From: Escherichia coli
GTDB lineage: Bacteria; Pseudomonadota; Gammaproteobacteria; Enterobacterales; Enterobacteriaceae
Assembly: GCF_001677475.2 (NCBI RefSeq)
Contig: NZ_CP015229.1
Length of the DNA: 64,000 bases
Reading direction: 5' to 3' (one strand)
The notes below the pieces were generated by a model, which was given only the letters and a program-made list of their open reading frames with translations, was not told the origin of the DNA and did not search any database. The number at the start of each line of letters is the position of its first letter. The first letter of the stretch is position 1. The position numbers and the translations under genes are program-made. Of the stretch, positions 19,289 through 47,156 are shown one piece after another.

Positions 19289-20629
19289 TTAACTCAACAG
19301 CTGGAAAGCAATCATCCCAACGATGGCACCGACAGTGCCGAGGATGGTTTCCATCATGGTCCAGGTTTTCAGTGTTTCGGCTTCAGTCGCGCCGGTAAAT
19401 TTACCGAACAACCAGAAACCGGCGTCGTTAACGTGGCTGACAACAATCGAACCACCGGCGATACAAATCGACAGCGCCGCCATTTGCGCACCGGAGTAGT
19501 TCAGTTGTTCAATAACCGGCATCACCAGTCCCACCGCCGTTAAACAGGCAACGGTGGCAGAACCCTGAATGATGCGCACTGCAGCTGCCAGCACGAAGCA
19601 GGTGATGGCAATCGGCAGGCCCATGCCGGTTAACGCTTCGCCCAGTGCCGGACCTACGCCAGAGTCAACCAGCACCTGTTTGAACACGCCGCCTGCACCA
19701 ATCACCAGCAGAATGATCCCCGCCGGTTGCAGCGCGTGACCACAAATTTCCATCACTTTGTCTTTTGGCATGCCCTGACGCATTGCCAGGCCATAAATTG
19801 CTACCAGACAAGCAACCAGAATCGCAGTAAACGGATGACCGATAAACTCAAACCATTCGTAAGCAGTTGATCCTTCTGGTACAAAACGCGCGGCAATGGT
19901 TTTAAGCCCTACCAGTACCAGCGGCAGCAGGATCAGCGACAGGCTAAATCCGAAAGATGGCATTTTGCCTTCACCGAGATGCGGTTCGCTGATGTCGTCA
20001 GGAATATGCAGCTCAACGTAACGGCTGATGAAGTTACCCCACAGCGGCCCGGCAATAATCATTCCCGGAATTGCCGCACACAGGCCAATCAGGATCATCC
20101 AGCCAAAATCGGCGTTCATCTGCGATGCCAGCAGCATTGGCGCAGGTCCAGGCACCAGGAATGCCGCCGCTGCCGCCACGCCTGCGAATAATGGGATTAC
20201 AAGCTTCACCAGGTTCGTACCGGTGTGGCGCGCCATTGAGAAAGCAACGCTAATCAGCAGAACAATCGCCACTTCAAAGAACAGCGGTAGTGCACAGACC
20301 AGCCCCGCAAGGCCGATGGCATAATGCGCGCGGCTGTGACCGAAGGATTTGAGCATTTTGACGGCAATCTGATCGACTGCGCCGGTTTCATGTAAGATCT
20401 TGCCAAACATAGCTCCCAGGGCGACAACCACCGCCAGGAAGCCGAGGGTGCCTCCCATCCCTTTTTCCATCGTCGCTGCGATTTTATCGAGCGGCATACC
20501 GGAAAAAAGGCCAGCCCCCATGGACACCACCATTAAAGCCAGGAAAGCGTGCATACGCGCCTTCATGACTAAAAACAGCAGCAGTAAAACAGACCCTACT
20601 GCTGTTAAAACAAGCGTTAATGTAGTCAC
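19289..20629 (-). CDS. gntU: Low-affinity gluconate:H+ symporter GntU
   Basis: 446-aa polytopic GntP-family ORF; start codon reads as GTG on the minus strand. Confidence 0.9.
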   Translation of the reverse strand: MTTLTLVLTAVGSVLLLLFLVMKARMHAFLALMVVSMGAGLFSGMPLDKIAATMEKGMGGTLGFLAVVVALGAMFGKILHETGAVDQIAVKMLKSFGHSRAHYAIGLAGLVCALPLFFEVAIVLLISVAFSMARHTGTNLVKLVIPLFAGVAAAAAFLVPGPAPMLLASQMNADFGWMILIGLCAAIPGMIIAGPLWGNFISRYVELHIPDDISEPHLGEGKMPSFGFSLSLILLPLVLVGLKTIAARFVPEGSTAYEWFEFIGHPFTAILVACLVAIYGLAMRQGMPKDKVMEICGHALQPAGIILLVIGAGGVFKQVLVDSGVGPALGEALTGMGLPIAITCFVLAAAVRIIQGSATVACLTAVGLVMPVIEQLNYSGAQMAALSICIAGGSIVVSHVNDAGFWLFGKFTGATEAETLKTWTMMETILGTVGAIVGMIAFQLLS

Positions 20630-20632
20630 TAC

Positions 20633-21160
20633 TTATTTGCCTTTTTTAATAACCTCGATGGTGCTTGCCACAACACCTTCCAGCGGTTGATCGATATCCA
20701 CCACCAGTACATCGGTTTCGTCCGCACCCGGCTCCTGCAGCGTTTCAAACTGCGTCACCAACATTTGGGTTTTAAAGAAATGGCCTTTGCGCGCTTTCAG
20801 GCGGCTTTCAATCACATCAAAATCGCCTTTCAGGTAGATGAACGAGAGATTCGGATTACCTTCACGCAGCAAGTCGCGATAGTGTTTTTTCAGTGCAGAA
20901 CAGACGATCAGCGACACTTTATTGGTGCGCTGCATAGCAAACGCGGCGTCGTTCAGCGCCTGCAACCACGGTTTGCGATCGTCGTCATTCAGCGGTTCAC
21001 CAGACGCCATTTTTTCGATATTGCGCCGTGGATGGAGGAAATCGCCATCAAGAAACGCGGCATGAAGTTGATGCGCCACTTCACTGGCGACCGCAGATTT
21101 GCCGCTGCCCGATACGCCCATCAGAACGTAAATGTGGTGATCATGGTTAGTCGTGCTCAA
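20633..21160 (-). CDS. gntK: Thermoresistant gluconokinase GntK
   Basis: Walker A GVSGSGKS; conserved N-terminus (M)STTNHDHH begins at a TTG codon 7 codons inside the track ORF; 175 aa. Confidence 0.85.
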   Translation of the reverse strand: MSTTNHDHHIYVLMGVSGSGKSAVASEVAHQLHAAFLDGDFLHPRRNIEKMASGEPLNDDDRKPWLQALNDAAFAMQRTNKVSLIVCSALKKHYRDLLREGNPNLSFIYLKGDFDVIESRLKARKGHFFKTQMLVTQFETLQEPGADETDVLVVDIDQPLEGVVASTIEVIKKGK

Positions 21161-21192
21161 AGTGGTGCCCCCACAATACAAGAATTAAAAAT

Positions 21193-21222
21193 GTTACGGG
21201 TAACTGTTATCGGTAACATTGT
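21193..21222. promoter_or_regulatory. GntR operator(s) in the gntKU promoter
   Basis: Two adjacent palindromic motifs atgttacgggtaac / gttatcggtaacat just upstream of gntK. Confidence 0.5.
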
Positions 21223-21298
21223 CCAGCCGGACAATATCAGAAGCAATATCCATCCGTGCCTTAAGTGTATAAGTGTGAGCTACTTCAAATTTGTAGGC

Positions 21299-22294
21299 TT
21301 AAATAGATCCGCCCGGTGACAAGGTGAAACCTAAATCTAACATTTTCGGTGTCACAGATTCGCCACGAATACGCGCCAGCAGGCGTTCAGCGCCAATACT
21401 GCCCATCCGCTCACGCGGCGTCAGTACGCTCGCCAACCGTGGTTCCATCACCTGACCAATGTCATGACCATGGAAACCGGCAATCGCCATATCGTCAGGA
21501 ACTTTCAACCCCAGACGCTGGCATTCAAACGCCGCGCCGACTGCCAGGTCATCATTAGTACAGAACACGCCATCCAGCTGCGGATATTCCCGCCTCGCCT
21601 GGCGAATCAGTTCAATACCGGAAGAGTAAGAAGAAGATTGCTCAACCATCACGCTATATGGCACCAGGCCTGCATCCAGCATCGCCTGTTCGTATCCCTT
21701 CTGTTTGATGATAGTACGTTCGTCGAGACGTGCGCCGAGATAGGCAATGTGGCGATGCCCGCGAGCAATAATGGCGGTGGTCATCTGCCGTGCCGCTTCA
21801 AAGTTATCAAAACCGACGGCGATATCGAGGCACGGCGACTGGCTGTCCATCAACTCCACCACCGGGATCCCCGCCACTTCAATCATCTTTAAGGTGCGCG
21901 GCGTGTGGGTACGTTCGGTGAGGATCAGTCCGTCGATATTCCATGAGAGCATTGATTCGAGGCGTTCTTGCTCCATTTCCGGTTTATAACCGTAGTGGGC
22001 CAGCATGGTCTGATAACCGTGCGCGTCGGTGACGCTTTCGATTCCGCGTAATACTTCCGCGAAAACCTGGTTGGTGAGAGAAGGTAACAGGACGCCAATC
22101 GCCCGGCTGGTGGCGTTAGAGAGGATATCGGGCGCACGATTGGGAATATAGCCCAGTTCATCAAGAGCGGCGGCAATCTTGCCGCGTAGAGCGACGGAAA
22201 CCTGCTCCGGGTTGCGTAAAAAACGGCTGACCGTCATTTTGGTCACGCCTACACGGTCAGCCACATCCTGAAGTACGGGTCTTTTCTTTTTCAT
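21299..22294 (-). CDS. gntR: LacI-family gluconate repressor GntR
   Basis: 331-aa ORF; N-terminal HTH (VTKMTVSRFLRNP) plus periplasmic-binding-like effector domain. Confidence 0.95.
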   Translation of the reverse strand: MKKKRPVLQDVADRVGVTKMTVSRFLRNPEQVSVALRGKIAAALDELGYIPNRAPDILSNATSRAIGVLLPSLTNQVFAEVLRGIESVTDAHGYQTMLAHYGYKPEMEQERLESMLSWNIDGLILTERTHTPRTLKMIEVAGIPVVELMDSQSPCLDIAVGFDNFEAARQMTTAIIARGHRHIAYLGARLDERTIIKQKGYEQAMLDAGLVPYSVMVEQSSSYSSGIELIRQARREYPQLDGVFCTNDDLAVGAAFECQRLGLKVPDDMAIAGFHGHDIGQVMEPRLASVLTPRERMGSIGAERLLARIRGESVTPKMLDLGFTLSPGGSI

Positions 22295-22517
22295 CGTCCT
22301 GAAGGTACAAAAGAGATAGATTCTCTTAGTTTAACACGGACGCCTCAGAACCTTCCCGGGGAAAACAGTGCTTGTTTACAATTATTAGATATACACTAAA
22401 TCAATTGCATCGCATTGTGCTAACGACGCGGCAAAACCCCGGAAGCGTACATCAGCACGCGACCGGAGCGAGCGAGGAAGCCTGCAAAAAGGCAGGCTTC
22501 AAAGATGCCGTTGAGTT

Positions 22518-23213
22518 TTAAACCGGCGGCAGATCGAACAGTAACACTTCGCTGTCGCTATCCGCATGGATGGAGATTGCCTGCTCATCCCAGATTGCCA
22601 GACCATCGCTGGTCGAGGCTTTCACGCCGTTAATGGTGACATTGCCTTTCACCACCTGGATCCAGACGCGGCGTTCAGCGGCAATCTGATGCACCGACTG
22701 CTCATCTTTCAGCAATGCCCAACGATACAGTTCCATATCCTGATGCACTTTCAGCGAACCATCTCGCGCATCCGGCGAGAGCACCAGCTGTTTGCCCTGT
22801 ACGGCATCGAAGCGACGCTGTTCATAACGCGGCGTAATGCCGTTTTCTTCAGGCATGATCCAGATCTGATACAGATGCAGACGCTCGGTGCTGCTTGGGT
22901 TGTACTCAGAGTGACGGATACCCGTACCCGCACTCATAATCTGGAACTCACCCGCCGGAACCTGCTCTTTATTGCCCATGCTGTCCTGATGTTCAACAGT
23001 ACCTTCCAGCACGTAGGTCAAAATTTCCATATCTTTATGCGGGTGAGTGCCGAAGCCCTGCCCTGCTTCAATCACGTCGTCATTAATCACGCGCAGCGCG
23101 GAGAAACCCATAAAGTTCGGATCGTAATAGTTGGCAAAAGAGAAAGTATGCCAGGAGTCCAGCCAGCCATGATTTGCATGACCACGTTCATTTGCTTTGC
23201 GTAAGTAGATCAT
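22518..23213 (-). CDS. yhhW: Pirin-like cupin (quercetin 2,3-dioxygenase) YhhW
   Basis: 231-aa ORF; cupin metal-binding His motif (GFGTHPHKDMEI). Confidence 0.9.
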   Translation of the reverse strand: MIYLRKANERGHANHGWLDSWHTFSFANYYDPNFMGFSALRVINDDVIEAGQGFGTHPHKDMEILTYVLEGTVEHQDSMGNKEQVPAGEFQIMSAGTGIRHSEYNPSSTERLHLYQIWIMPEENGITPRYEQRRFDAVQGKQLVLSPDARDGSLKVHQDMELYRWALLKDEQSVHQIAAERRVWIQVVKGNVTINGVKASTSDGLAIWDEQAISIHADSDSEVLLFDLPPV

Positions 23214-23335
23214 TTGTATTCGCCCCCTGAATGTTTTCGATGGGCTTAGTGTGGACCCGATCTGCCTGGGATGATAGAGGGTGAAAATTGACCCCTCTGT
23301 TCAAAAAAATTGAACTATTCGAGGGGCCATCAAAC

Positions 23336-24373
23336 TTACTTCGCGAGAGTCACTGTGGAGGGAGAAGCTTGCTCAAAACCGCGTTCAAGGATTTCCAGAT
23401 TGGTAAGAACTTCAGATTCCTTGACGTAATTTGGCGCACCGTTGGTGATGGTTTGGTACAACGCATCATAAACGCGCCCATAATCGCCCATTTCTGGCTT
23501 CATCTCTTCTCTGACCGTCACGCCCTCTTCATTGACATACTCCAGCACACCGACCGAATCATCCGCCGCGAATCCCGGTTCGCCCGGCATAATATTAGCC
23601 TTCAGGCTGGTTTCCTGCTGGTCGATACCGTATTTAATAAACGAACCTTTCTTACCGTGAACGATAAATTTCGGATAATCGATTTTCACCAGATGGCTGG
23701 TTTTGACGATGGCTTTCAGGTCGCCATAAAACAGCTGCGCTTCAAAGGTGTCGTCAGGATTGGCTTTATTACGCAGGCTGCGGATGTCATAAGCGACGTG
23801 ATCCGGGCGACCGAACAGAGAAATAATCTGGTCCATCGTATGCACACCAAGGCCATAGAACGCGCCATCCTGCGGCAACCCAGGTTTGGTTTCTGCCACC
23901 GGGCGGTAATAGTCAAAATGGCTTTCCACTTCGACAATCTCTCCCAGCTTGCCGCTTTCAATCGCTTTTTTCGCTGTCAGGAAGCAGGAATCAAAACGAC
24001 GATTCTGATACGGCGTGACGGTCAACCCTTTGCTTTTCGCCAGTGCAAAAAGCTCTTTCGCCTGCGCAAGCGTCGGGGTGAACGGTTTTTCGACCAGCAC
24101 ATTTTTCCCGGCTTCCAGCGCGCGTTTCGCGTACTCGAAGTGGCTGTCCGCGTGGGTGCAGACAACAACCAGCTTAACATCGGGATCGTTTAGCACTTCG
24201 TCGAGATCGCTGGTGAAATGGATATGGGAATAAATGGGAGCCTGTTCTTCCGGCTTCGCATGGCGACGAAAAATATGCGCGACATGCCAGCTATCCTTGC
24301 GGTTAAGTACATACGGCAGATGGTAACGGGTGGTGCTTTTGCCGAAGCCAATAAAGGCGCAGTTGATGACCAT
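23336..24373 (-). CDS. yhhX: Gfo/Idh/MocA-family NAD(P)-dependent oxidoreductase YhhX
   Basis: 345-aa ORF; N-terminal Rossmann fold (INCAFIGFGKSTTRYHLP). Confidence 0.9.
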   Translation of the reverse strand: MVINCAFIGFGKSTTRYHLPYVLNRKDSWHVAHIFRRHAKPEEQAPIYSHIHFTSDLDEVLNDPDVKLVVVCTHADSHFEYAKRALEAGKNVLVEKPFTPTLAQAKELFALAKSKGLTVTPYQNRRFDSCFLTAKKAIESGKLGEIVEVESHFDYYRPVAETKPGLPQDGAFYGLGVHTMDQIISLFGRPDHVAYDIRSLRNKANPDDTFEAQLFYGDLKAIVKTSHLVKIDYPKFIVHGKKGSFIKYGIDQQETSLKANIMPGEPGFAADDSVGVLEYVNEEGVTVREEMKPEMGDYGRVYDALYQTITNGAPNYVKESEVLTNLEILERGFEQASPSTVTLAK

Positions 24374-24494
24374 GATTTCGTCCTTTTTAAGGTGATTATT
24401 TACACCTTAGCGCAAAGCGGACGTGGTTCCTACTGGAGTGCGCATAACGAACACAAGCACTTCCCGTGGATAAATTGAAAACGAAAGATCAAAA

Positions 24495-24584
24495 AAAAGC
24501 CAGCACCCGGCTGGCTAAGTAATACTGGAAGCAATGTGAGCAATGTCGTGCTTTCAGGTTCTCCGCGAGGGTCTTCCTGATCGC
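24495..24584 (-). ncRNA. ryhB: Iron-responsive small RNA RyhB
   Basis: Minus-strand sequence GCGATCAGGAAGACCCTCGCGGAGAACCTGAAAGCACGACATTGCTCACATTGCTTCCAGTATTACTTAGCCAGCCGGGTGCTGGCTTTT matches RyhB as I recall it, including the terminator hairpin and U-tail; ends are approximate. Confidence 0.9.
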
Positions 24585-24587
24585 GAG

Positions 24588-24625
24588 ACAATAATAATCA
24601 TTCTCATTCGCACTTGTCCAACACT
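24588..24625 (-). promoter_or_regulatory. ryhB promoter with Fur box
   Basis: AT-rich Fur-box-like sequence (minus strand aatgagaatgattattattg) immediately upstream of the RyhB 5' end. Confidence 0.65.
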
Positions 24626-24705
24626 TTTTGCAAAAAAATGCATTTGACTCGCATTTGAAAGTCAATGATGTTGAAAGGGACATTTACCCCAAAGAGGACA
24701 AAGGA

Positions 24706-25194
24706 ATGAGTGAGATAGTGATACGCCACGCAGAAACACGGGATTACGAGGCCATCAGGCAGATTCACGCCCAGCCGGAGGTGTATTGCAACACACTACA
24801 ACTACCTCATCCTTCGGAAGGCTGGTGGCCAGAAAGATTGAAAGATCGCCAGGGGTTTAAACAACTGGTTGCCAGCATTGATGGCATCGTGGTGGGTCAT
24901 CTTTTCATTGAGGCTTATCAAGGCCCACGCCGTAGTCATGTTGCAACTTTTGGTATCTGTGTTGACTCCCGCTGGCACAACCGCGGCGTCGCCAGCGCCC
25001 TGATCCGCGAATTGATTGAAATGTGCGACAACTGGTTACGGATAGATCGTATTGAGTTGACGGTGTTTGCGGATAACGCCCCGGCAATCGCCGTCTATAA
25101 AAAATTCGGCTTTCACATAGAAGGCACCGGCAAAAATTACGCTTTTCGTAATGGTGAATATGTCGATGCATATTATATGGCGCGGGTGAAATAA
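24706..25194 (+). CDS. yhhY: GNAT-family N-acetyltransferase YhhY
   Basis: Track ORF 188 aa; conserved start MSEIVIRHAETRDYEA gives 162 aa; acetyl-CoA motif RGVASALI. Confidence 0.9.
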   Translation: MSEIVIRHAETRDYEAIRQIHAQPEVYCNTLQLPHPSEGWWPERLKDRQGFKQLVASIDGIVVGHLFIEAYQGPRRSHVATFGICVDSRWHNRGVASALIRELIEMCDNWLRIDRIELTVFADNAPAIAVYKKFGFHIEGTGKNYAFRNGEYVDAYYMARVK

Positions 25195-25221
25195 AGAATT
25201 TGCAATATAAGTTTGTCATTT

Positions 25222-25248
25222 AAGCCCTCACCTACCGGGAGAGGGCTT
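25222..25248. terminator. Bidirectional terminator hairpin shared by convergent yhhY and ggt
   Basis: 8-bp stem aagccctc/gagggctt with 11-nt loop in the 60-bp gap between the two stops. Confidence 0.45.
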
Positions 25249-25254
25249 AAGATA

Positions 25255-26988
25255 TTAATAACCCGCCGTTAAATCATCCACCGAGCGCGGGTCAGATGCG
25301 CCGTACAACTCGCCGTCCGGCCCAACCATAATGCTTTGTGTGCTGCCCATCGCCTCTTTCAGCGCTACTTTCTGACCTTTTGCTTCCAGCAGCTTGAGCG
25401 TATCCGGGCTAAATCCTTTCTCGACACGCAGCTCGTCCGGCAACCACTGATGGTGGAAACGCGGTGCATTGGTCGCTTCGGCGACATTCATACCATAATC
25501 GATGCTATTCACCACCATTTGCAGCACGGTAGTGATGATCCGGCTACCGCCAGGGCTACCGGTGACCAGCCAGGTTTTACCGTCTTTCACCACAATGGTT
25601 GGTGACATCGACGACAGCGGACGTTTATTCGGCCCGACGGCGTTGGCATCACCGCCCACCAGCCCGTAAACGTTCGGTACGCCAGGTTTGGCGGAGAAAT
25701 CATCCATTTGGTTATTAAGCAGAATACCGCTATCACCCGCGACAATGCCCGTACCGAAGGTGGTGTTCAGCGTATAGGTCACCGCTACCGCGTTGCCGTC
25801 TTTATCCACCACTGAGTAATGGGTAGTTTGATTACTCTCATAAGGCGCAAGCTTGCCGGGGCGAATTTCGCTGGATGGCTTCGCTTTATTGATATCGATT
25901 TGATCGGCAATGGATTTGGCATAGGCTTTATTGGTCAGCGCCTGCCACGGCACTTTGACAAAATCCGGGTCGCCAAGATATTCCGAGCGGTCGGCGTAGG
26001 CGTATTTCTCAGCTTCAGCCATGATTTGCATCGCGTCGGCACTGCCAAAGCCGTATTTCTTCATATCGAAGTTTTCCAGAATATTGAGGATTTGTACGAT
26101 ATGGATCCCGCCGGAGGATGGCGGTGGCATGGAGTAAACCTGATACCCGCGATAATCGCCGCTTATTGGTGTGCGTTCGACCGCTTTATACGCCGCTAAA
26201 TCTTCTTTGGTGATCAAGCCACCGTTTTTCTGCATCTCCTGGGCAATCTGTTCCGCTATCGTGCCTTTGTAGAATTCGTCCGGGCCGTTTTCGGCAATCA
26301 TCTCCAGGCTCTTTGCCAGGTTCGCCTGCACCAGCTTGTCGCCCTTTTTCAGCGGCTCGCCCTCTTTCCAGAAGATAGCCTTGCTGTTTTCGTGGTTCGG
26401 CAGCACTTCACTGCCGTAGGTTTTGAGATCGTCTGCCAAAGCATCGTTAACGATAAAACCATCGCGTGCCAGTTTAAACGCCGGCTGCACGACTTTATTC
26501 AGCGGCATAGTGCCGTACTTATCCAACGCCAGCGAGAAACCTGCGACCGTACCGGGCGTGCCGGAAGCCAGATGCGAAGTGAGTGATTTTTTGCTGTCCG
26601 GGTTGCCCTGGTCATCAAGGAACATATCGCGGGTCGCTTTGGCGGGTGCCATTTCGCGGAAATCAATCGCCGTGGTGTTGCCATCTTTAGTGCGGATCAG
26701 CATAAAACCACCGCCGCCCAGATTCCCCGCCTGCGGATGCGTTACCGCCAGCGCATACCCCACCGCCACGGCGGCATCAACGGCATTACCACCTTCTTTA
26801 AGGATATTCACCCCCACCTGAGTGGCAGTAGCATCCACAGACGCCACCATCCCCTGTTTCGCGCGTACCGGATGAAAGACATCTTCCTCCACGCCATAAG
26901 AAACAGGAGGCGCGGCGGCGGCGCTAAAACAACTTCCTGAGAGCAGAGCAGCAATGGCCACCCGGCGTAAAAACGTCGGTTTTATCAT
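25255..26988 (-). CDS. ggt: Gamma-glutamyltranspeptidase Ggt (periplasmic)
   Basis: Track ORF 586 aa; conserved start MIKPTFLRRVAIAALL (signal peptide) gives about 580 aa; catalytic Thr in TTHYSVVD. Confidence 0.95.
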   Translation of the reverse strand: MIKPTFLRRVAIAALLSGSCFSAAAAPPVSYGVEEDVFHPVRAKQGMVASVDATATQVGVNILKEGGNAVDAAVAVGYALAVTHPQAGNLGGGGFMLIRTKDGNTTAIDFREMAPAKATRDMFLDDQGNPDSKKSLTSHLASGTPGTVAGFSLALDKYGTMPLNKVVQPAFKLARDGFIVNDALADDLKTYGSEVLPNHENSKAIFWKEGEPLKKGDKLVQANLAKSLEMIAENGPDEFYKGTIAEQIAQEMQKNGGLITKEDLAAYKAVERTPISGDYRGYQVYSMPPPSSGGIHIVQILNILENFDMKKYGFGSADAMQIMAEAEKYAYADRSEYLGDPDFVKVPWQALTNKAYAKSIADQIDINKAKPSSEIRPGKLAPYESNQTTHYSVVDKDGNAVAVTYTLNTTFGTGIVAGDSGILLNNQMDDFSAKPGVPNVYGLVGGDANAVGPNKRPLSSMSPTIVVKDGKTWLVTGSPGGSRIITTVLQMVVNSIDYGMNVAEATNAPRFHHQWLPDELRVEKGFSPDTLKLLEAKGQKVALKEAMGSTQSIMVGPDGELYGASDPRSVDDLTAGY

Positions 26989-27107
26989 CGTTATTCTCCA
27001 GAGATTAAGGGGCAACCCCAGCTAAGCCTGGTATATAACTCTGAATTAATCCTGATGATTGCAGGAAAGGAGTAAACTTAAAGAATATCTTCAGAGGAGG
27101 ATACGCG

Positions 27108-27500
27108 ATGAAACGACTTCTGATTCTTACGGCACTCCTGCCGTTTGTCGGCTTTGCACAGCCCATTAATACTCTGAACAACCCTAACCAGCCGGGGTAT
27201 CAGATCCCCAGTCAGCAGCGGATGCAAACCCAAATGCAAACGCAGCAAATCCAGCAAAAAGGGATGCTGAATCAGCAACTGAAAACGCAAACTCAGTTGC
27301 AACAACAGCATTTAGAAAACCAGATAAACAATAATTCTCAGCGGGTGTTGCAGTCACAGCCGGGGGAGCGAAATCCCGCCCGGCAGCAAATGCTGCCCAA
27401 CACCAACGGCGGGATGTTAAACAGCAACCGTAATCCGGATAGTTCGTTGAATCAGCAGCATATGCTGCCGGAGAGGAGAAACGGCGACATGCTGAATTAG
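27108..27500 (+). CDS. yhhA: Secreted Gln/Asn-rich low-complexity protein YhhA
   Basis: 130-aa ORF; N-terminal signal peptide ([17 protein letters not shown]), then Q/N-rich repetitive sequence. Confidence 0.8.
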
Positions 27501-27534
27501 CCCAGCACGCCGCAGCCTGATATTCCGTTGAAAA

Positions 27535-28278
27535 CTATTGGGCCGTAAAGTTCGGACCAATCACGTCAATCGCATCGGTACAGATGCAATCCACGCCCCA
27601 GCGCAGCAACTCTGTCGCGCGCTGGGGTTTATTGACGGTATAAACCAGAATCCGTAATCCGGCGTCTTTCAACTGCATCACTCGCGCTTTATCGAGTAAC
27701 TTATGATTGAGATGAATAGAGACGCAGCCCAGCCGCGCGGTCAGTTCTCGCCAGTCGTCGCGCCACTCATCAAGCAATAAACCGCGCGGCAGTTCTGGTA
27801 CTGCTTGTTGCGCGGCTTCTAAAGCATCAATCTCAAACGATGACAGCAGCGGCGGCGTCATATCGGCCCACAGTTCGCGTGCCGCCAGCGCCACCATTTT
27901 GCCCGTTAATGGTCCAGTGCCAGTGGTGGGTTTGATTTCGATATTCGCCATCATCCCGTGTTCACGACAGCGTTCCGCCACCTGCGAAAGCAACGGTAGC
28001 GGCTCACCTTTAAACATTTTGCTGTACCAACTGCCCGCATCCACGCGCAGTAAATCCTGCCAGTTCAGTTCACCCGCGACGCCCCAGCCGTTGCTGGTAC
28101 GTTCGAGATTGTCGTCATGAAGCAGGAAGATCTCGCCATCTTTCGATAACTTCGCGTCAAATTCGATCATCTTATGACCGTATTTTGCCCCGACGTCGAT
28201 TGCCGCCAGGGTGTTTTCGGGGGCCAGCTTACCGCCGCCACGATGAGCGACGATGCGGGGATAAGGCCAGTTACTCAT
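27535..28278 (-). CDS. ugpQ: Cytoplasmic glycerophosphodiester phosphodiesterase UgpQ
   Basis: 247-aa ORF; GDPD-family catalytic His (IVAHRGGG). Confidence 0.95.
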
Positions 28279-29345
28279 ACTCGTTGTCCTGTTTCACCAT
28301 CAAAAAGATGCAGCTGATTTTCCGCCAAATGCAGCCACAGCGTGCTGCCTGCCGTCGGGCGCTCCTGATGCGCCAGTCGCACCACCAGCTTCTGCTCGCC
28401 CCAGCGTCCGTGCGCCAGGTTATCTGCGCCGAGGATCTCCAGCGTATCCATCACCAGCGGTACGCCACCTTCTGCTTGCGAGCTTAGCGCAATATGTTCC
28501 GGGCGAATGCCGAGGGTCATTTTACGCCCGGCATACTGACGGTAGCCACCGTTTAGCGGCAGCTCAATACCGCCGTCCAGTTCGAAATGCGTGCCTTCGT
28601 TATTCACGCGGCCTGTCAGCAGGTTCATCGCCGGGCTGCCGATAAAACTCGCCACAAACAGGCTGGCGGGCTTTTCATACACTTCAACCGGAGTGCCAAT
28701 CTGTTCGGCAACGCCGCCGTTCATCACCATCACCCGCTGAGCGAGCGTCATCGCCTCAACCTGATCGTGAGTAACGTAGAGTGAAGTCGTTTTCAGGCGA
28801 CGGTGCAATTGCTGCAACTCAAGGCGCATCTGCACGCGCAGCTTGGCATCAAGGTTCGAGAGCGGCTCATCAAACAAAAATACCGCCGGATCGCGCACAA
28901 TCGCGCGCCCCATTGCCACGCGCTGGCGCTGCCCGCCGGAAAGCTCACGCGGGCGACGTTTGAGCAGACCGTCCAGCTCCAGAATGCGCGCCGCTTCTTT
29001 AACGCGCTCGGCTATTTGCTGCTTGCCCATGCCGCGAATTTTCAGCCCCCACGCCATGTTTTCTTCGACGCTCATATGCGGATAAAGCGCGTAGTTCTGG
29101 AACACCATCGCAATCCCGCGATCTTTCGGCTCCATTTCGGTCACACGCTCATTGTTGATCCAGATATCGCCTTCCGTTACCCGCTCCAGCCCGGCAACCA
29201 TGCGCAGCAGCGTGGATTTCCCGCAGCCAGACGGCCCGACCATCACGATAAATTCGCCATCCGCCACATCAAGGGTCAGCGGTTTAATCACCTGGGTTTT
29301 GCCATCCCAGCTTTTGGTTACTGCCTGTAATTTCAGTCCTGCCAT
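28275..29345 (-). CDS. ugpC: sn-glycerol-3-phosphate ABC transporter ATP-binding protein UgpC
   Basis: Track ORF 369 aa; conserved start [13 protein letters not shown] gives 356 aa; Walker [10 protein letters not shown] and signature LSGGQRQR. Confidence 0.95.
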
Positions 29346-29346
29346 C

Positions 29347-30192
29347 TTATTTCTCACTATCGACCAGGCCGCGCACGAAGGCACGCTGCATCACTAAAAC
29401 AATCACTACTGGTGGGATCAGGGTTAACAACATCGCCGCCATCACCGAGTTCCATTCCGTGGTGCCTTCGCCAGTGGCGATCATCCCTTTAATCCCTGCC
29501 ACGGTGGTGCCGAGATCAACGTCGGTAATAATCAACAACGGCCACAAATACTGGTTCCAGCCGTAAATAAAGGTGATCACAAACAGCGCCGCCAGATTAG
29601 TTTTGGAGAGCGGAAAAACGATGTCGCAAAAGAAGCGCATTGGTGACGCACCGTCGATCCGCGCCGCTTCCACCAGCTCATCCGGCAGCGTCATAAAGAA
29701 CTGGCGGAAAAGAAACGTGGCGGTCGCCGAGGCCATCAGCGGCAGCGTTAAACCGGCGTAGCTGTCGAGCATCTTCAGATTGGCGATGACTTCCACCGTC
29801 GGGAAAATACGCACTTCAACCGGCAGCATCAGGGTGATAAAAATCATCCAGAAGAATAGGTTACGTAGCGGAAAACGAAACCAGACAATGGCAAATGCCG
29901 AGAGCATCGAGACGGTAATTTTGCCGAGCGTAATGCTGAACGCCATCACAAAGCTGTTAAGCAACATCCGCCAGAACGGCGCGCTATTCGTGCCTACCCC
30001 GTTCACCCAGATGTTGTGGATGTTTTCCAGCAGATGCGTGCCGGGGATGAGCGTCATCGGCGCGGCGTAGACGGCCTGTTTATCCAGCGTCGCCGCGACA
30101 AACGCCACGTACAGCGGGAAGAGGATCACCGCGATCCCGAGGATCAGCATGGTATGGCTGAATATCGTCAGCCACGGACGGTTCTCAATCAT
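29347..30192 (-). CDS. ugpE: sn-glycerol-3-phosphate ABC transporter permease UgpE
   Basis: 281-aa polytopic ORF; operon position. Confidence 0.95.
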
Positions 30193-31076
30193 TGGTAACG
30201 CACCTTGCTTTCAACATAGCGGAACTGCACCACCGTCAGCACGATGACGAGGAACATCAACACCACCGACTGCGCGGCAGACGAAGCCAGATCCAGTCCG
30301 GTAAAGCCTTCGCGGTAAATCTTATAAATCAGCGTCGTGGTGGCCTGAACCGGCCCGCCGGACGTGGCGGCGTCGATCACCGGGAAGGTGTCGAAGAAGG
30401 CGTACACCAGGTTCACCACCAGCAGGAAGAAACTCACCGGGGCGATAAGCGGCAGAGCAATCTTAAAGAAGCGGCGAATCGGCCCTGCACCGTCGATGGC
30501 TGCGGCTTCGATCAACGAACGGGGAATGGATTGCAGCGCGGCATAGAAGAACAGAAAGTTGTAGCTGATTTGCTTCCACACCGAGGCAAACACCACCAGA
30601 AACATTGCCTGACCGCTGTTTTGCGCGTGGTTCCAGTCGTAGCCGAACTCAGCGAGAAAATGGGTGATCAGCCCACGGCCGGGGTTAAACAGGAAGATCC
30701 ACAATACTGCGGCAACGGCGGGAGCCACGGCATACGGCAGCAGCATCAAGGTTTGATAGAAACGACTGCCGCGCACGATGTACTCCACCAGCGCCGCGAA
30801 GAACAGCGACACCAGCAAACCGCTAACGGTGACAAAGGTGCTGAATTTTATCGTCGTCCAGAAGGAATCGAGATAGTAGCTGTCATGGAACAGCGTGACG
30901 AAGTTATCCAGGCCGACAAACTGGCTGGAGAAACCAAACGGATCGACGCTTTGTAGCGAGTACCACAACGCTTCGCCCGCAGGCCAGATAAAAAAGATAA
31001 CGGTGATGATGAGCTGCGGCGCGACCAGCAGATAAGGCAGCCAGCGCGAGCGGAACACCGGACGGGATGATGACAT
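30189..31076 (-). CDS. ugpA: sn-glycerol-3-phosphate ABC transporter permease UgpA
   Basis: 295-aa polytopic ORF; operon position. Confidence 0.95.
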
Positions 31077-31094
31077 TACGGTTAATTCCTGAAC

Positions 31095-31165
31095 TGTGCC
31101 GGATGCGCTTCGCTTATCCGGCCTACACGCGATGCCAGGTCAGATAAGCGAAACGCATCCGACAT
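31095..31165. repeat. REP/BIME element in the ugpB–ugpA intergenic region
   Basis: REP-type palindromes tgccggatgcgcttcgcttatccggcctac and gtcagataagcgaaacgcatccgac. Confidence 0.7.
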
Positions 31166-31173
31166 TACACTGA

Positions 31174-32490
31174 TTAAGACTTCGTCGATTTCTCAAAGCG
31201 GCGCAGTAACTGATTCCCACGCTCAACGGCGGTATCCAGCGCCTGCTGTGGCGTCTTCTTACCGGTCCACACGCTCTCCAGCTCTTCATCCACAATCACG
31301 CGGATTTGCGGCATGTTGCCCAGACGCAGCCCTTTGGTGAACGGCAACGGCGGCTTGTTCAGCATCTGACGCGTCGCGGTATCCGCCCCTGGGTTTTTCT
31401 CATAAAAGCCCTGCTCACGGGTCAGGTCATACGCTGCTTTGGTGATTGGCAGATAACCGGTTTTCTGATGCCACTCGGCAGCGTTTTCTGGCTTCGCGAG
31501 GAAGTCGAGGAACTTCGCCACGCCGGTATACGTTTCTTTATCTTTGCCCTGCATCACCCACAGGCTGGCTCCGCCGATAATGGCATTTTGTGGCGCATCT
31601 TTCGCGTCAGCGTCGTAAGGCATCATGCCTACGCCATAGTTGAATTTGGCGTACTCGCGAATGTTGGCAAGCGAACCGGAAGAGGCGGTGGTCATCGCGC
31701 AATCACCGTTATAGAACTTCTCGGTGGATTCATCCTTACGACCGACGTAGCTGAAGTCGCCCTTCTTGTTCATCTCCTCGAGCATGGCAATGTGTTTCAC
31801 CTGCTCCGGCTTGTTGAACTCCAGCACCGCGTCCGTGCCGTCAAAACCGTTGTTTTTGCTGGCAAACGGCAGACCGTTCCAGGCGCTAAAGTTTTCCAGT
31901 TGGATCCAGCCCTGCCAGCCGCTGGCGTAGCCGCACTTCATACCGGAGGCTTTCAATTTTGCGGCATAGTCCGCCAGATCCTGCCAGGTTTTCGGCGGCT
32001 GTTCCGGGTCTAATCCTGCTTTCTTGAAGGCGTCTTTGTTGTAATAGAGTACGGGGGTCGAGCTGTTGAACGGCTGGGAGAGTAAGTGGCCCGTTTTGCT
32101 GTCGGAGTAGTAACCGGAAACCGTCGGCACAAACTGCGATTCATCGAATTGAATCCCCGCCTCTTTAAACACGTCATATACCGGTTTAATGGCTTTCGAC
32201 GCCATCATGGTGGCGGTGCCAACTTCATAAACCTGCAAAATAGCCGGAGCGTTGCCGGTACGAAATGCGGCAATCCCCGCGCTTAAATTCTGTTCGTAGT
32301 TGCCTTTATAGGTCGGTACAATTTTGTAATCCGGGTTTTCGGCGTTAAAACGTTGGGCCAGAGAATCCACCTCTTTACCCAGTTCCCCTTCCATAGAATG
32401 CCAGAACGGAATGGTCGTCACTGCCTGTGCATTCCCCATTAACGCCAGTCCGAGCGCCAGTGCTGAAGCTGTATAATGTAACGGTTTCAT
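31174..32490 (-). CDS. ugpB: Periplasmic sn-glycerol-3-phosphate-binding protein UgpB
   Basis: 438-aa ORF with signal peptide; solute-binding protein heading the ugp operon. Confidence 0.95.
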
Positions 32491-32589
32491 CGTTTATCTC
32501 TCTTGTTGTACCGAATGCGCGAATTCACGCGTTTTATGCTCGCGGGGTAACATGACATGCTCGAATTACAGAAAAATAACTTTTTTGTT

Positions 32590-32640
32590 ACATTTGTAAG
32601 ATAGTAAGGTGTCAGAAAGATGACAAGGCAGTGACGGCGC
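32590..32640 (-). promoter_or_regulatory. Candidate PhoB boxes of the ugpB promoter
   Basis: Minus-strand sequence ttgtcatctttctgacac resembles the pho box consensus CTGTCAT-N4-CTGTCAT; the ugp operon is known to be Pho-regulated. Confidence 0.35.
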
Positions 32641-32727
32641 GGGTGAGGGAAAATGGGAGATGGGACACGGATAAGCGGGAAAATATAGAAGGTCTGAATC
32701 AAACTCTACAGATTGCTCATCGTTTCA

Positions 32728-32826
32728 TGCCGGATGCAGCGTAAACGCCTTATCTGGCCTACAAGATCGTACAAATTCAACATATTGCCACTCACCCAGT
32801 AGGCCTGATAAGCGCAGCGCATCAGG
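32728..32826. repeat. BIME: two inverted REP elements between ugpB and livF
   Basis: gccggatgcagcgtaaacgccttatctggcctac and inverted copy gtaggcctgataagcgcagcgcatcaggc. Confidence 0.8.
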
Positions 32827-32888
32827 CATTTTTACATTTGTCAGCTGTCTCAAAGGAGTCTTTTGACTCCTTATCAATCAACGTGTTA

Positions 32889-33602
32889 TTACCCGCCTAA
32901 ATACGCGCTTCTCACCGCTTCGTTCGCCAGCAGTGCGTCGCCGGTATCGGAGAGCACCACATGGCCGTTTTCCAGCACGTAGCCGCGATCCGCCAGCTTT
33001 AGCGCCTGGTTAGCGTTCTGCTCGACGAGGAAGATAGTCATCCCCTGCTCGCGCAGCTGCTCGATGGTGTCGAAAATTTGCTGAATGATAATCGGCGCAA
33101 GGCCGAGCGATGGCTCATCAAGCAACAACAAACGCGGGTTGCTCATCAGCGCACGACCAATCGCCAGCATCTGCTGCTCACCGCCGGACATGGTGCCCGC
33201 CCGCTGAACACGGCGTTCATGGAGACGCGGAAACAGTTCATACACCCACTTTATGCGTTCCTGGAACTGGTCGCGTTCGGCAAAAAAGCCGCCCATCGCC
33301 AGGTTCTCTTCCACCGTCATCCGCGAGAAGACGCGACGCCCTTCCGGGACAATCGCTACCGCTTCGCGCATGATTTTCGCCGTCTGCCAGTCGGTAATGT
33401 CTTTATCATCAAACACAATTCGCCCGCTGGTGGCGCGCGGATCGCCGCATAACGTGCCGAGCAAGGTGGTTTTCCCCGCCCCGTTCGCGCCAATCAGCGT
33501 GACAATCTCGCCCTGATTGATATGCAGGCTCACCTCATGCAGCGCCTGGATTTTGCCGTAGTGGGCGCTGACTTTGTCAAAGGACAACATGACTTTTTCC
33601 AT
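32889..33602 (-). CDS. livF: Branched-chain amino acid ABC transporter ATP-binding protein LivF
   Basis: Track ORF 241 aa; conserved start MEKVMLSFDKV gives 237 aa; Walker A GANGAGKTT. Confidence 0.95.
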   Translation of the reverse strand: MEKVMLSFDKVSAHYGKIQALHEVSLHINQGEIVTLIGANGAGKTTLLGTLCGDPRATSGRIVFDDKDITDWQTAKIMREAVAIVPEGRRVFSRMTVEENLAMGGFFAERDQFQERIKWVYELFPRLHERRVQRAGTMSGGEQQMLAIGRALMSNPRLLLLDEPSLGLAPIIIQQIFDTIEQLREQGMTIFLVEQNANQALKLADRGYVLENGHVVLSDTGDALLANEAVRSAYLGG

Positions 33603-33603
33603 C

Positions 33604-34371
33604 TTATGCCTCACCTAAATAGGCACGGATCACGTCCGGGTTATTACGGATCTGCTCCGGCGTACCGTTTGCCAGCGGCGTCCCCTGATTGACCACGTAA
33701 ATTCGGTCCGAAATTCCCATCACCAGCTTCATATCGTGTTCAATCAACAAGATAGTGGTGTTGTGATGGTTACGCAGTTCGGCAATCAGCTCATCCAGCT
33801 CTTTGGTCTCTTTCGGATTAAGACCTGCTGCCGGTTCGTCGAGCATTAAAATCTCCGGCTGCGTCACCATGCAGCGGGCAATTTCAAGACGGCGTTGGTC
33901 ACCGTAGGCCAGGTTACTCGCCTGGCGGTTAGCATGTTCCAGCAAACCAATGCGCTCAAGCCAGGTCGCGGCCCGGTCTAGCGCTTCACTCTGGGCGCGA
34001 CGGAAAGAGGGCGTTTTCAGCAGGCCAGAGAACAGCCCGGTTTTCAGTTGTTGATGCTGCGCCACCAGCAGGTTTTCAATTACCGTCATTTCACGGAACA
34101 GACGCACATGCTGGAAGGTGCGCACCACGCCCATGCGGGCAATTTGCTGCCCCGGTAAACCTTCCAGGTGCTGATCGCGCAGTAAAATGGTGCCGCCGGT
34201 GGGTTTGTAGAATCCGGTCAGGCAGTTGAAGACCGTGGTTTTTCCGGCACCGTTAGGGCCGATTAACGAGACGATCTCCTGCGGGTACAGTTCGAGATTG
34301 ACGTTGTTCACCGCCAGCAGGCCGCCGAAGCGCATCATCAGGCCGTTAACGGATAATAATGGCTGACTCAT
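33604..34371 (-). CDS. livG: Branched-chain amino acid ABC transporter ATP-binding protein LivG
   Basis: 255-aa ORF; Walker [10 protein letters not shown]. Confidence 0.95.
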
Positions 34372-39290: not shown

Positions 39291-40394
39291 TTACTTCGCA
39301 TCGGTCGCCGTGCCGTTGGCGTGCCAGTCAAATACGCCGAACTCAAAGCCTTTCAGATCGCCTTTCTCATCCCACGTCAGCGGCCCCATCACCGTATCAA
39401 CCGAGTTCGCTTTCAGGTATTTGGCGATCTCCGCCGGATCGTCAGACTGATTCAGCCCCGCCTGCAAAGATTGCAGCGCCGCGTAGGTGGTCCAGACGAA
39501 TGCGCCGCTTGGATCCTGTTTTTTCGCTTTGATCGCGTCAACAATCGGTTTGTTCGCCGGAACCTGATCGTAGTTCTTCGGCTTGGTCACCAGCAGTCCT
39601 TCCGCTGACTCGCCCGCGATATTAGACAGCGAGACGTTAGCCACACCTTCCGGCCCCATAAACTGAGTTTTCAGCCCCGCCGCGCGCGCCTGACGCAGGA
39701 TCTGCCCCATTTCCGGGTGATAACCGCCGTAGTAAACGAAGTCGATATTCTCTTTCTTCAGGCGTGCCACCAGCGTCGAGAAATCTTTTTCCCCGGCGGT
39801 GATGCCATCAAAGAACACTACGTTAGCATTGCCTTTCTTCAGGCCGTCCTGCACCGCACGCGCCAGACCTTCGCCGTACTGTTGTTTGTCGTGAACGATA
39901 GCAATACGCTGCGGTTTCACTTTCTCAAGAATATATTTTGCCGCCGTCGGCCCCTGGTCGGAATCCAGGCCGGTGGTGCGCAGGATCAGCTGATAGCCAC
40001 GGGCAGTCAGCTCTGGCGCGGTTGCCGCTGGGGTGATCATTAAAATGCCTTCGTCTTCATAAATGTCAGACGCTGGCTGTGTTGATGAAGAACAGAGGTG
40101 ACCAATGACATATTTAATGCCGTCGTTAACCACTTTGTTCGCCACCGCGACGGCCTGTTTCGGGTCACAGGCATCGTCATATTTTACGATTTGCAGTTTA
40201 TTGCCTTTAATGCCGCCTTTAGCGTTGATATCCGCAACCGCCTGCTCTGCGCCGGTAAACTCCTGATCGCCGTACTGCGCAACCGGACCGGACATTGCGC
40301 CCACGACGGCGACTTTAATATCTTCTGCCAGAGCCATATTGCTGAATGCCAGCGCGATACATCCTGCCAGTAACGCTTTACCCTTTATGTTCAT
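39291..40394 (-). CDS. livJ: Leu/Ile/Val-binding periplasmic protein LivJ
   Basis: Track ORF 386 aa; conserved start [17 protein letters not shown] (signal peptide) gives 367 aa. Confidence 0.95.
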
Positions 40395-40665
40395 CCTGAG
40401 AATCCCCATTCTTCTGGTTATTACGTGTGTTGTGATGTTGTTGTTCAGCACTTTATTTCGTTTTATGCATGACTACCCGTGCTTTAGCAGCATACTCTGC
40501 TAAAACATACCCGATTTTTATGATATTGGAATAGCTATTTTGACAGTTTATTAACAATCTGCGTGGGGATTGGCGTTTTGCCGGAGGGGGAAACTGATTA
40601 TTGCAGAGGCCCAAAAAACAAAAACCCCGGATTCTCATCCAGGGTTCTCTGCTTAGTAGCGGAAA

Positions 40666-41520
40666 TTACGCTTCAATGGCAGCGCGAAGTTTTTTCATCG
40701 CGTTCTTTTCCAGCTGGCGCACACGCTCAGCGGAAACACCGTAACGGTCAGCCAGTTCCTGCAACGTGGACTTGTTGTCTTCGTCCAGCCAGCGCGCGCG
40801 GATGATATCCTGGCTACGCTCGTCCAGACCTTGCATCGCGTCGGTCAGACGGTTTGCCGCCTGCTCTTCCCAGTTATCATCTTCGATGCCGTCGGCAAAG
40901 TTAGATGATTTATCCTGCAGATAGAGCACCGGTGCCATCGGCTGGCTGTCGGAATCGTCGTCGGAAGACAGGTCAAAGGTCATGTCCTGTGCCGCCATAC
41001 GTGATTCCATCTCACGTACGTCTTTGCTGGTTACGCCCAGTTCACGGGCCACCATTTCGACTTCATCCTGGTTAAACCAGCCCAGACGCTGCTTGGTTTT
41101 ACGCAGGTTGAAGAACAGTTTGCGCTGCGCTTTGGTGGTCGCAACTTTGACGATACGCCAGTTACGCAGAACGTATTCGTGGATCTCTGCTTTGATCCAG
41201 TGAACGGCGAAGGAGACCAGGCGCACACCCACTTCCGGGTTGAAACGGCGCACTGCTTTCATCAGGCCGATGTTACCTTCCTGAATCAAATCCGCCTGTG
41301 GCAGGCCATAGCCCGCATAATTACGAGCAATATGAACAACAAACCGCAGGTGAGACAGGATCAGCGTTTTAGCTGCTTCCAGATCGCCATGGTAATGCAG
41401 CTTTTCAGCCAGCGCCCGCTCCTCGTCAGCCGACAACATCGGCCACGCGTTAGCTGCCCGGATGTAGGAATCCAGGTTGCCAACTGGGGCTAAAGCTAAA
41501 CTTTGCATTTTGTCAGTCAT
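40666..41520 (-). CDS. rpoH: Heat-shock sigma factor RpoH (sigma-32)
   Basis: 284-aa ORF; sigma-70-family regions 2 and 4. Confidence 0.95.
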
Positions 41521-41626
41521 TCAAATCCTCTCAATCGATATCTTCTGGCGCTTCAGTGGTAGCAACAACTGTGCCAGAGCTTAAGAGCAACGAGGTTATC
41601 ATTCACTGTTTTATCAGACCGTGATT

Positions 41627-41635
41627 TTATCCACA
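41627..41635. promoter_or_regulatory. DnaA box in the rpoH multi-promoter region
   Basis: Exact consensus 9-mer TTATCCACA about 110 nt upstream of rpoH. Confidence 0.5.
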
Positions 41636-41764
41636 AGTTCAATGCAAGCTTGTGAATAAATTACGCACAAAATGTGACATAGAGATGAAATACCGGGAAG
41701 AGACAACGGGGTCTCTTTCCCTGCTACGGAACCCATTGCAGGGAAAGAGTATAACACGCTTTTA

Positions 41765-42823
41765 TTATTCAGGCGTAAAGTGGCGTAAATGTTGTACCGT
41801 GGCAAGCCACGCTGCCACCCAGCCAATCATCGAGCATACCAGCAGCAATAGCAGGCATTCATCGAACGATAAACCATTGATATCAAACTTCGTTCCGAAA
41901 ACCTGTGCCACTTCCGCAACCGCCGATGACAATCGCAGTACCAGAATTTCTGACAAAATTAGTGACAACAATGCGCCAGAAAACCCCAGCAATGCGCCAC
42001 CATACAGGAACGGGCGCAGGATGAAACCATCCGTTGCACCAATCAGTTTCTGCACGTTAATGGAGTCACGACGAGCAAAGATACTCAGGCGTACACTGTT
42101 ACCGATGACGAGGAACACTGCCGCCACCATCAACACGCCGATCATCGCCGAAACGCGCCCGACCAGCCCGGTCAACGCCGCCAGACGGGCAAACCAGCTG
42201 TCATCCATCCGCACTTCGTCAATGCCGTTAATCTGCGTGATACGATCACGCAGCGTATTGAGTGATTCCGTCCCCTGAAAATCGAGTTTCGGGATCACCA
42301 CCGCCACTGCCGGAAGCGGGTTTTCTTCCAGCATATCCAGCGCACCACCAAAACCAGACCAGTTACGGAACTCGCCCAGTGCGTCTTCACGAGAAAGATA
42401 GTTCACTTTCTCCACGCCTTGCTCGGCCTGCAACTGTGCCACCACGCCCGCAGCGGCGTCATCGTCCAGCGTTTTTTGCAGATAAACAGTGATTTGCGGT
42501 GACGGATAATACTGCGTCGCCGCCTGATTAACGTTTTTGTACACCATATAACAGACGCTGGGCAGCGTCAGGGAGATGGCGATAACCATCACCGTTAAAA
42601 ATGTGGCGAACGGTTTGCTTTTCAGATCCTGCAATGCGCCGTGGAAGGCATAGCGCACCTGTTCGTTGAAAACGTTGGTTTTGCGATTAACCGGTTTTGG
42701 CGAGGATTTCGCGCGTTTCGGCGCGTTACGACCGCCGTCGCCAGAGCCGCCGACCGATTTACGGAAGCGATCAAGACGCCCGCCAAACTGCCGAATATGA
42801 TTGATTGCATCGCGCTTATTCAT
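41765..42823 (-). CDS. ftsX: Cell-division ABC-transporter-like permease FtsX
   Basis: Track ORF 361 aa; conserved start [15 protein letters not shown] gives 352 aa; overlaps the ftsE stop. Confidence 0.95.
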
Positions 42824-43484
42824 GGCCCACGCCTCCATGCAAGTGACCATCGCTCAGGGTGAGCATGCGATAGGAACGCCGCGAAATCAGGTTGATGTCG
42901 TGCGTTGCCATCAATACGGTTACCCCAACGCGGTTAAACTCTTCAAACAGACGTAAAATGCCTTCCGACAGCGCGTCGTCCAGGTTACCGGTCGGTTCGT
43001 CCGCCAGAAGTACCGCAGGCTTGTTCACCACCGCGCGGGCAATGCCAACACGCTGTTGTTCACCGCCGGAAAGCTGAATAGGAAAGTTCTTCGCTTTGTC
43101 CAGTAGCCCGACTTTATCCAGTGCCGCCGATACACGACGACGAATATCGTCACCGCTGGCACCGGCGATAATCAGCGGGATCGCCACGTTATCGTAGACA
43201 GTACGGTCCATCAGTAGATGGTGATCCTGGAAAATCATGCCAATCTGGCGGCGCAGAAACGGAACTTCACGGTTTTTCAGACGCGTGATGTCATGGCCGC
43301 TAAACCAGATTTTCCCGGCGCTGGGCCGCTCAATCCCACAGATCAGCTTCAGGAGGGTACTTTTCCCTGCGCCGGAATGACCGGTCAGAAACGCCATCTC
43401 ACCCGGCTGCATATGGAACGTAACGCCCTGCAGCGCCTGTCTCCCACCGAGATAAGCCTTGCTGACATGTTCAAAGCGAATCAT
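42816..43484 (-). CDS. ftsE: Cell-division ATP-binding protein FtsE
   Basis: 222-aa ORF; Walker [10 protein letters not shown] and signature LSGGEQQRV. Confidence 0.95.
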
Positions 43485-43486
43485 TG

Positions 43487-44983: not shown

Positions 44984-45132
44984 TTGCGACTACACTCCTC
45001 GCTGTTGCTTCATGGCACAGCGTTAACGCTATGTACATAGCAGCTAAAAAAATGATGAAATAGTCTATCACTTAACTTAATTCACATCACCGCCTGCAAG
45101 TATGTGTTATCTGGCGGATTGAGCAATTTATC

Positions 45133-45988: not shown

Positions 45989-45990
45989 CC

Positions 45991-46350: not shown

Positions 46351-46490
46351 CTTTATCCCTCATCGGAAAATGCGGAAATAAGCATACCCTGCCAGTTATG
46401 GTGTTGTCATCCGTCCACCCTCGCCACTAAACTGGAAGCAAGACCGTAGGCATTCCGCTTACGAAAAAATAACGAATTCAAGGAACTAAG

Positions 46491-47117: not shown

Positions 47118-47124
47118 TAAAACT

Positions 47125-47156
47125 TGACTCTGGAGTCGACTCCAGAGTGTATCCTT
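47125..47156 (+). promoter_or_regulatory. zntA promoter with ZntR (MerR-family) operator
   Basis: -35 ttgact and -10-like tatcct separated by about 20 bp, spanning a perfect 22-bp palindrome actctggagtcgactccagagt. Confidence 0.65.

Follow-up and report, generated by a model that had tools for sequence, protein, structure and literature searches.

In the window (by which we mean the whole stretch of Escherichia coli DNA analyzed here, 64,000 nucleotides in length), yhhY and ggt converge on one another, and the open reading frame list and the sequence itself both put the gap between them at exactly 60 bp (Table 1). The TAA stop codon of yhhY has its last base at 25194, and the stop codon of ggt (TAA on the minus strand) occupies 25255-25257. 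Ggt has 577 aa in the window versus 580 aa in K-12; PPA is missing after the signal peptide (26900-26915), a loss from the AAAAPPAPPVSYG motif that corresponds to a 9-bp in-frame difference. The same 1734-nt ggt length was also seen in several empty-site E. coli strains (loci L003 and L004). Upstream of yhhY, between this gene and yhhX, lies the RyhB sRNA gene (24491-24555, minus strand; Rfam RF00057, 83 bits), with a promoter region that extends to about 24620; RyhB is the only RNA family that we found in 23000-28000. Between about 24505 and 24705, the sequences of all of the Escherichia species compared are nearly identical, and conservation is higher there than in the flanking coding sequence.

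Table 1. Features at the yhhY-ggt junction, in window coordinates
Feature	Position	Strand	Evidence
yhhY, GNAT N-acetyltransferase, 162 aa (left flank)	24706-25194	+	ORF; Pfam Acetyltransf_1, 5.9e-17; yhhY annotation in matching E. coli records
Deeply divergent tract in yhhY, 345 bp	24802-25146	+	55 private bases; dS
Spacer, 60 bp; empty (ancestral) junction allele	25195-25254	.	Between convergent stop codons
Part of spacer that differs in island-bearing strains	25195-25222	.	K-12 junction sequences; strain 104 hybrid spacer
Hairpin common to both convergent genes	25220-25250	.	Inverted repeat and folding
ggt, gamma-glutamyltransferase, 577 aa from MIKPTF start (right flank)	25255-26988	-	ORF

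In K-12 (strain EMG2), the order of genes at this locus is yhhY, tssD (= yhhZ), a gene encoding a YrhA-family protein, IS1A, yrhD, yrhB, and ggt. A BLAST comparison of the window with the K-12 locus gave two blocks, 20649-25194 and 25255-33891, both of which are ~96.3% identical; K-12 has 3454 bp between the blocks, which end and start at the yhhY and ggt stop codons, and no island sequence was found in the window by the same comparison. Genes for an Hcp-domain toxin and for immunity are present between yhhY and ggt in K-12 and absent in the window. YhhZ has an N-terminal T6SS_HCP domain (Pfam, 2.8e-10) and a weak, subthreshold HNH match, YrhB belongs to the Imm35 family (Pfam, 4e-23), and YrhA and YrhD have no Pfam match. 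The GC content of the island is 0.30-0.35, versus 0.50-0.58 in the flanks. Since islands that lack IS1 (strains MB06233 and PS_131_S11) encode an intact YrhA of 164 aa, the IS1 copy in K-12 yrhA is a secondary insertion. The island itself is old at this locus, because it differs by 2 to 3% between distant E. coli lineages (identity classes of 97-100%) and because Citrobacter youngae has an orthologous module at this site too (YhhZ, 70% identical; YrhA, 66%). The original prediction had described about 60 bp with one shared hairpin between the convergent stops and had named yhhZ, yrhA, an IS1 copy, and yrhB as the accessory material of K-12; the spacer is exactly that short and holds one inverted repeat, and the named genes are all there in EMG2. 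The alignment with K-12 that it had proposed revealed no direct yhhY-ggt adjacency in that strain, so that the window is indeed an empty site relative to K-12, the empty form being, as discussed below, the ancestral one. The accessory nature of the K-12 segment is already on record: YhhZ has been called an "evolved Hcp," an orphan whose HNH domain is degenerate (PMC2907695), and has been placed in group 32 of the His-Me finger proteins (PMC5714182), and yhhZ-yrhAB was flagged as genomic island Gist34 by a method based on composition and promoter density (PMC3309015).

Four states of the junction together account for ~5415 of the 5426 complete RefSeq E. coli genomes, a collection in which O157 and clinical clones are overrepresented, so that the percentages given here describe the database and not the species. 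The yhhZ-yrhA segment was matched in 3830 genomes and at least 80% covered in 3766 (about 70%). A direct junction, detected as a contiguous match to a 140-nt probe (40 nt of yhhY, the spacer, and 40 nt of ggt), was present in 974 (18%), and the O157-type DUF4225 cassette was present in 343. Short inserts, such as the yrhB-only form of strain 639, make up the fourth state; yhhY and ggt lie within ~1.1 kb of each other (empty or with a short insert) in 1242 genomes, which leaves ~268 with short inserts, a figure obtained by subtraction and not by typing. As in the window, the junction is empty in E. coli LHM10-1, 873.10, LS4, 042, and MLI121 and in E. albertii, E. whittamii, and Escherichia sp. 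E1V33, and the empty junctions of these relatives have a homologous spacer of 59-70 bp with the same hairpin core (GCCCTC...GAGGGC). Two of the 60 spacer positions differ between the window and the empty-site E. coli spacers, and the other 58 are identical. Unlike the window, E. albertii has an inverted loop, and strain 104 has a hairpin of the K-12 type. The best matches of the window to complete RefSeq E. coli genomes were 98.1% over 40000-52000 and 97.2% over 20000-32000, as against 91-95% to the other Escherichia species representatives; we considered whether the window might belong to a cryptic Escherichia species and rejected this on the basis of that comparison. Its source lineage seems to be sparsely covered by complete genomes.

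Scanning one genome per species (GTDB representatives) with YhhY yielded 80 loci, with no Salmonella locus among them. Both genes are visible in 77 of these loci (Enterobacteriaceae and Erwiniaceae), ggt converges on yhhY in every one of the 77, and the spacer is 31-164 bp long in 64 of them. All five of the non-coli Escherichia representatives (L011-L015, comprising E. albertii, E. whittamii, Escherichia sp. E1V33, and two divergent species representatives labeled "E. coli") have a spacer of 59-70 bp that is homologous to the window's, and the window spacer is identical at 54-57 of 60 positions to those of L012 and L011, with no island remnant. Because the Escherichia outgroups and 64 of the 77 representatives have short spacers with a hairpin, the empty, one-hairpin junction is ancestral for both the genus and the family. 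The reading that we favor, and to which we would give a probability of roughly 0.85 as a whole explanation, is that the window has the ancestral junction allele, either never occupied or regained from a donor of ancestral type. The window lineage probably never held the island, although the age of the island tells against full confidence in the direction of change in this lineage.

The main competitor, which we regard as improbable, is a secondary loss, in which the window lineage would once have had the yhhZ island (or another cassette) and been freed of it either by deletion or by recombination that brought in an empty allele. In favor of a loss are the age of the island and its presence in ~70% of E. 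coli, the flanks, which have clearly been reshuffled by recombination, and the apparently imported tract in the window's own yhhY. Against it is the spacer, which retains its 54-57/60 match to other Escherichia spacers and has no trace of the island within its 60 bp; such a sequence would not be restored by simple deletion. Wholesale replacement by an empty allele would restore it, and even then, the allele now in place would still be ancestral.

The single inverted repeat of the spacer (TTAAGCCCTCACC/GGAGAGGGCTTAA, with arms at 25220-25232 and 25238-25250) can be written as TTAAGCCCTC-N11-GAGGGCTTAA, in which the 11-nt loop contains an inner 3-bp stem. Folding of the hairpin region (81 nt) gave -20.7 kcal/mol (z = -2.7) for the plus strand and -19.8 kcal/mol (z = -2.0) for the minus strand, and the stem-loop (stem of 10-13 bp, -17.5 to -20.7 kcal/mol) is GC rich, as that of an intrinsic terminator would be. 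A strong hairpin was found in all 64 of the short spacers of the species representatives (-15.9 to -101.8 kcal/mol), with sequences that vary widely. We relied on this presence instead of the MAFFT alignment, in which the 3' arm of the K-12-type hairpins was one column out of register. In addition, the E. whittamii hairpin has a compensatory pair (TTCAG...CTGAA versus TTAAG...CTTAA, read by eye). The retention of structure across ~60 species and this compensatory change suggest that the hairpin is functional; it is probably a two-way transcript-end structure, acting as a terminator or as a 3'-end stabilizer for both yhhY and ggt. Neither strand has a T/U run after the hairpin (tails, AAGATATT on the plus strand and AAATGACA on the minus strand), and a simple intrinsic-terminator scan did not call it (no T run; loop longer than 8 nt). 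For these reasons, we infer a terminator role from conservation alone, and assignment of the hairpin to the canonical intrinsic-terminator class is not established.

We also considered whether the hairpin might be a dispersed palindromic repeat (REP-, BIME-, or boxC-like) and discarded the idea, since it is single copy within the 64-kb window at up to 3 mismatches and E. coli genomes have a median of 1 match to the 140-nt junction probe. The hairpin of E. albertii has the stem seen in the window, but its loop is reverse-complemented relative to that of E. coli (TCCCGGTAGGC versus ACCTACCGGGA), so that the orientation of the hairpin is flipped between the two species. In Enterobacter, Lelliottia, Buttiauxella, and relatives (11 loci), long nested palindromes (CCCTCACCCCGGCCCTCTCCCC...GGGGAGAGGGTTAGGGTGAGGGG) fill the yhhY-ggt spacer in one to three copies; they fold at energies as low as -100 kcal/mol and have the appearance of a dispersed palindromic repeat family. 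Multicopy-looking CCCTCTCCC palindromes occur at the yhhY-ggt site in several other genera.

In occupied E. coli variants, divergence from the empty allele begins directly after the yhhY stop codon, and all such variants have the same last 36 bp before ggt, including a hairpin (GGCCCTCTTCCCACGAAGAGGGCC) with the GCCCTC/GAGGGC core of the window hairpin. In strain 104 (L090, 6401-6459), the junction is empty and its spacer is a hybrid, in which a left half of the window type, up to TTTAAGCCCTC, gives way to the K-12-type TTCCCACGAAGAGGGCCGCTAACC; the join, at AGCCCTC, leads into a hairpin that is otherwise found only next to islands. This hybrid spacer places the right edge of the island at the foot of the hairpin (AGCCCTC...) and shows that the window-type and K-12-type hairpins are alleles of one element. 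A 7-mer (TGTCATT) that lies near the left edge in both K-12 and the window was tried as the left junction and set aside, being too short to tell from chance.

The flanks of the junction are mosaic. LHM10-1 combines a window-type yhhY and an empty spacer with a Ggt protein identical to that of K-12, and 873.10 has a YhhY identical to that of K-12 next to an empty spacer. Across ggt-yhhA-ugpQ, most pairs of E. coli strains differ by 3 to 6% (ggt-region identity, 93.7-96.7%), which suggests that deep allele classes adjoin the junction on this side. As an observation in its own right, ggt-yhhA-ugpQ (25255-28278 in the window and the matching parts of L001-L006) is far more diverse than the yhhW-yhhX side (0 to 4%).

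The best-supported course of events would begin with the rare, illegitimate entry of a cassette at a convergent junction, where it does no harm; such a junction would be permissive because neither a gene nor an operon is broken by an insertion. In K-12 and ~70% of E. coli, the cassette in question is an orphan type VI secretion cassette, rich in AT (GC, 31-35%), that lies between the yhhY stop codon and the hairpin foot, with the Hcp-HNH toxin YhhZ followed by YrhA, YrhD, and the Imm35-family YrhB, and with IS1 arriving later in K-12 yrhA. Once in place, the cassette could spread, or yield to the empty allele, by homologous recombination in the flanking yhhY and ggt, and such exchange would leave these two genes unusually diverse and mosaic. 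It is the mosaicism that points to homologous recombination in the flanks as the probable means of transfer.

It might be argued instead that the hairpin is an attachment site for a recombinase or transposase that inserts various islands, given that at least six unrelated cargos occupy this intergenic site across genera and that every occupied E. coli variant has the same 36-bp, hairpin-bearing right end. We think this very improbable. In none of the junction states examined does the annotation of the locus include an integrase, tRNA, or tmRNA, there are no target-site duplications and no direct or inverted terminal repeats at the island ends or flanking the empty site, and the IS1 of K-12 sits within yrhA and is missing from islands that otherwise match. 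A classical integrase-mediated island site can be set aside on the same grounds, as none of its marks (a tRNA, tmRNA, or att site, an integrase, and direct repeats) was seen. Least probable of all, and in our view scarcely credible, is an assembly artifact in which the island was collapsed or dropped from the window. We found nothing in its favor, and 974 complete genomes, each assembled independently, show this junction too, as do five other Escherichia species.

The first 95 nt and the last 48 nt of the window's yhhY are ordinary, as is the spacer; the difference from other alleles is concentrated in the tract between them, and the encoded YhhY is 84% identical to that of K-12. Within the tract, 55 bases are absent from all 10 of the other Escherichia alleles compared, to which it is ~78% identical, and it is 98.7% identical to that of strain LHM10-1. 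The allele shows no disruption, and its product scores as a GNAT. The dS of the tract is 0.9-1.2 between the window and every Escherichia allele (dN/dS, 0.12-0.16), compared with 0.37 between K-12 and E. albertii and 2.0 between the window and C. youngae (the value against C. sedlakii being saturated); the divergence is thus ~2.5 to 3 times that between K-12 and E. albertii and yet smaller than that from Citrobacter. No donor was found among the 80 species representatives, where the best nucleotide match was 78-79%. Proteins at least 96% identical to the window's YhhY are all labeled E. coli, those of Citrobacter being 75-78% identical and those of Salmonella 72-75%, too low for Salmonella to be the donor. 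The tract is present at 90% identity or more in ~161 of the 5426 E. coli genomes (about 3%), and the thirty-odd carriers that we inspected all have an empty junction of the window type or a hybrid one. The simplest reading of these sequence comparisons, which we offer only tentatively, is that the tract may be an old import from an unsampled lineage that branches outside all Escherichia species described so far; alternatively, E. coli itself may have kept an ancient allele. The tract may have entered E. coli together with the empty-junction allele during a cassette swap. If the import were real, the yhhY-ggt locus would count as a hotspot of cross-genus recombination, with DNA of a "ghost" donor surviving in its flanks.

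The site has been filled in other genera as well. Inserts of 503-5348 bp occupy the same position in 13 of the 77 species representatives and fall into at least six unrelated kinds of cargo. These are a Citrobacter-specific open reading frame of 294 aa alone; the same open reading frame with Hcp-fusion toxins that differ in their C termini and an Imm35 protein (C. werkmanii, C. youngae, and Citrobacter sp. FP75); the same open reading frame with PfkB/DeoR, GATase1-like, YdcZ, and phosphotriesterase genes; MsrA and MsrB in Buttiauxella gaviniae; a chemoreceptor in Atlantibacter; and a Tse2-like ADP-ribosyltransferase in Pantoea. The 294-aa open reading frame is conserved, has no Pfam match, and lies ~45 bp downstream of yhhY in 10 Citrobacter loci, either alone or ahead of other cargo. 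Because unrelated cargos recur at one position, the term "hotspot" is supported in a descriptive sense. The original prediction had called the junction a variable integration hotspot; recurrence and variety are borne out, as E. coli shows four states and other genera at least six cargos, and nothing indicates site-specific integration. It had also taken the absence of the island to mark the segment as non-K-12, which is true, but the mark is a weak one, as 974 of the 5426 genomes are also empty and flanks that are only ~96.3% identical to K-12 already say as much.

A search of the literature on yhhY and ggt together found nothing on the junction, and one on the function of YhhY found little. 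The difference between empty and occupied junctions is an ordinary and already recognized presence/absence polymorphism, the K-12 island being documented, and only the divergent yhhY tract comes as a mild surprise. The finding types the window as an E. coli lineage without the YhhZ Hcp-HNH toxin module and the putative immunity genes for YrhA and YrhB, and an empty-site strain could therefore be sensitive to kin that deliver the YhhZ toxin. The junction opens no new question, and its value is mainly one of bookkeeping. It does provide a small but clean case of a permissive junction between convergent genes, one that several genera have filled independently, and the mosaic flanks and the deep yhhY allele could interest students of recombination and introgression in E. 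coli.

Besides the empty junctions of other Escherichia, a close known counterpart is the yhhZ-yrhA-(IS1)-yrhD-yrhB island locus of K-12, with which the window shares its chromosomal position, its flanking genes, and a homologous ggt-proximal hairpin. Unlike K-12, the window has none of the 3454 bp, and in K-12 yrhA has been further broken by IS1. Two-way hairpin terminators between convergent genes are a known kind of element in bacteria. Like these, the window has a single GC-rich stem-loop midway between converging stop codons, and a hairpin holds the yhhY-ggt position in ~60 species despite changes in sequence; unlike these, the window hairpin has no U run on either strand, has an 11-nt loop with an inner 3-bp stem, and failed a simple intrinsic-terminator pattern. 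Finally, accessory-gene hotspots driven by recombination between core genes are known from comparative genomics of E. coli. The yhhY-ggt site resembles them in having several alternative cargos, no mobility genes, and raised diversity in the flanking core genes, and it differs from them in being small (cargos of 0-5.3 kb) and in being common to genera from Escherichia to Pantoea.
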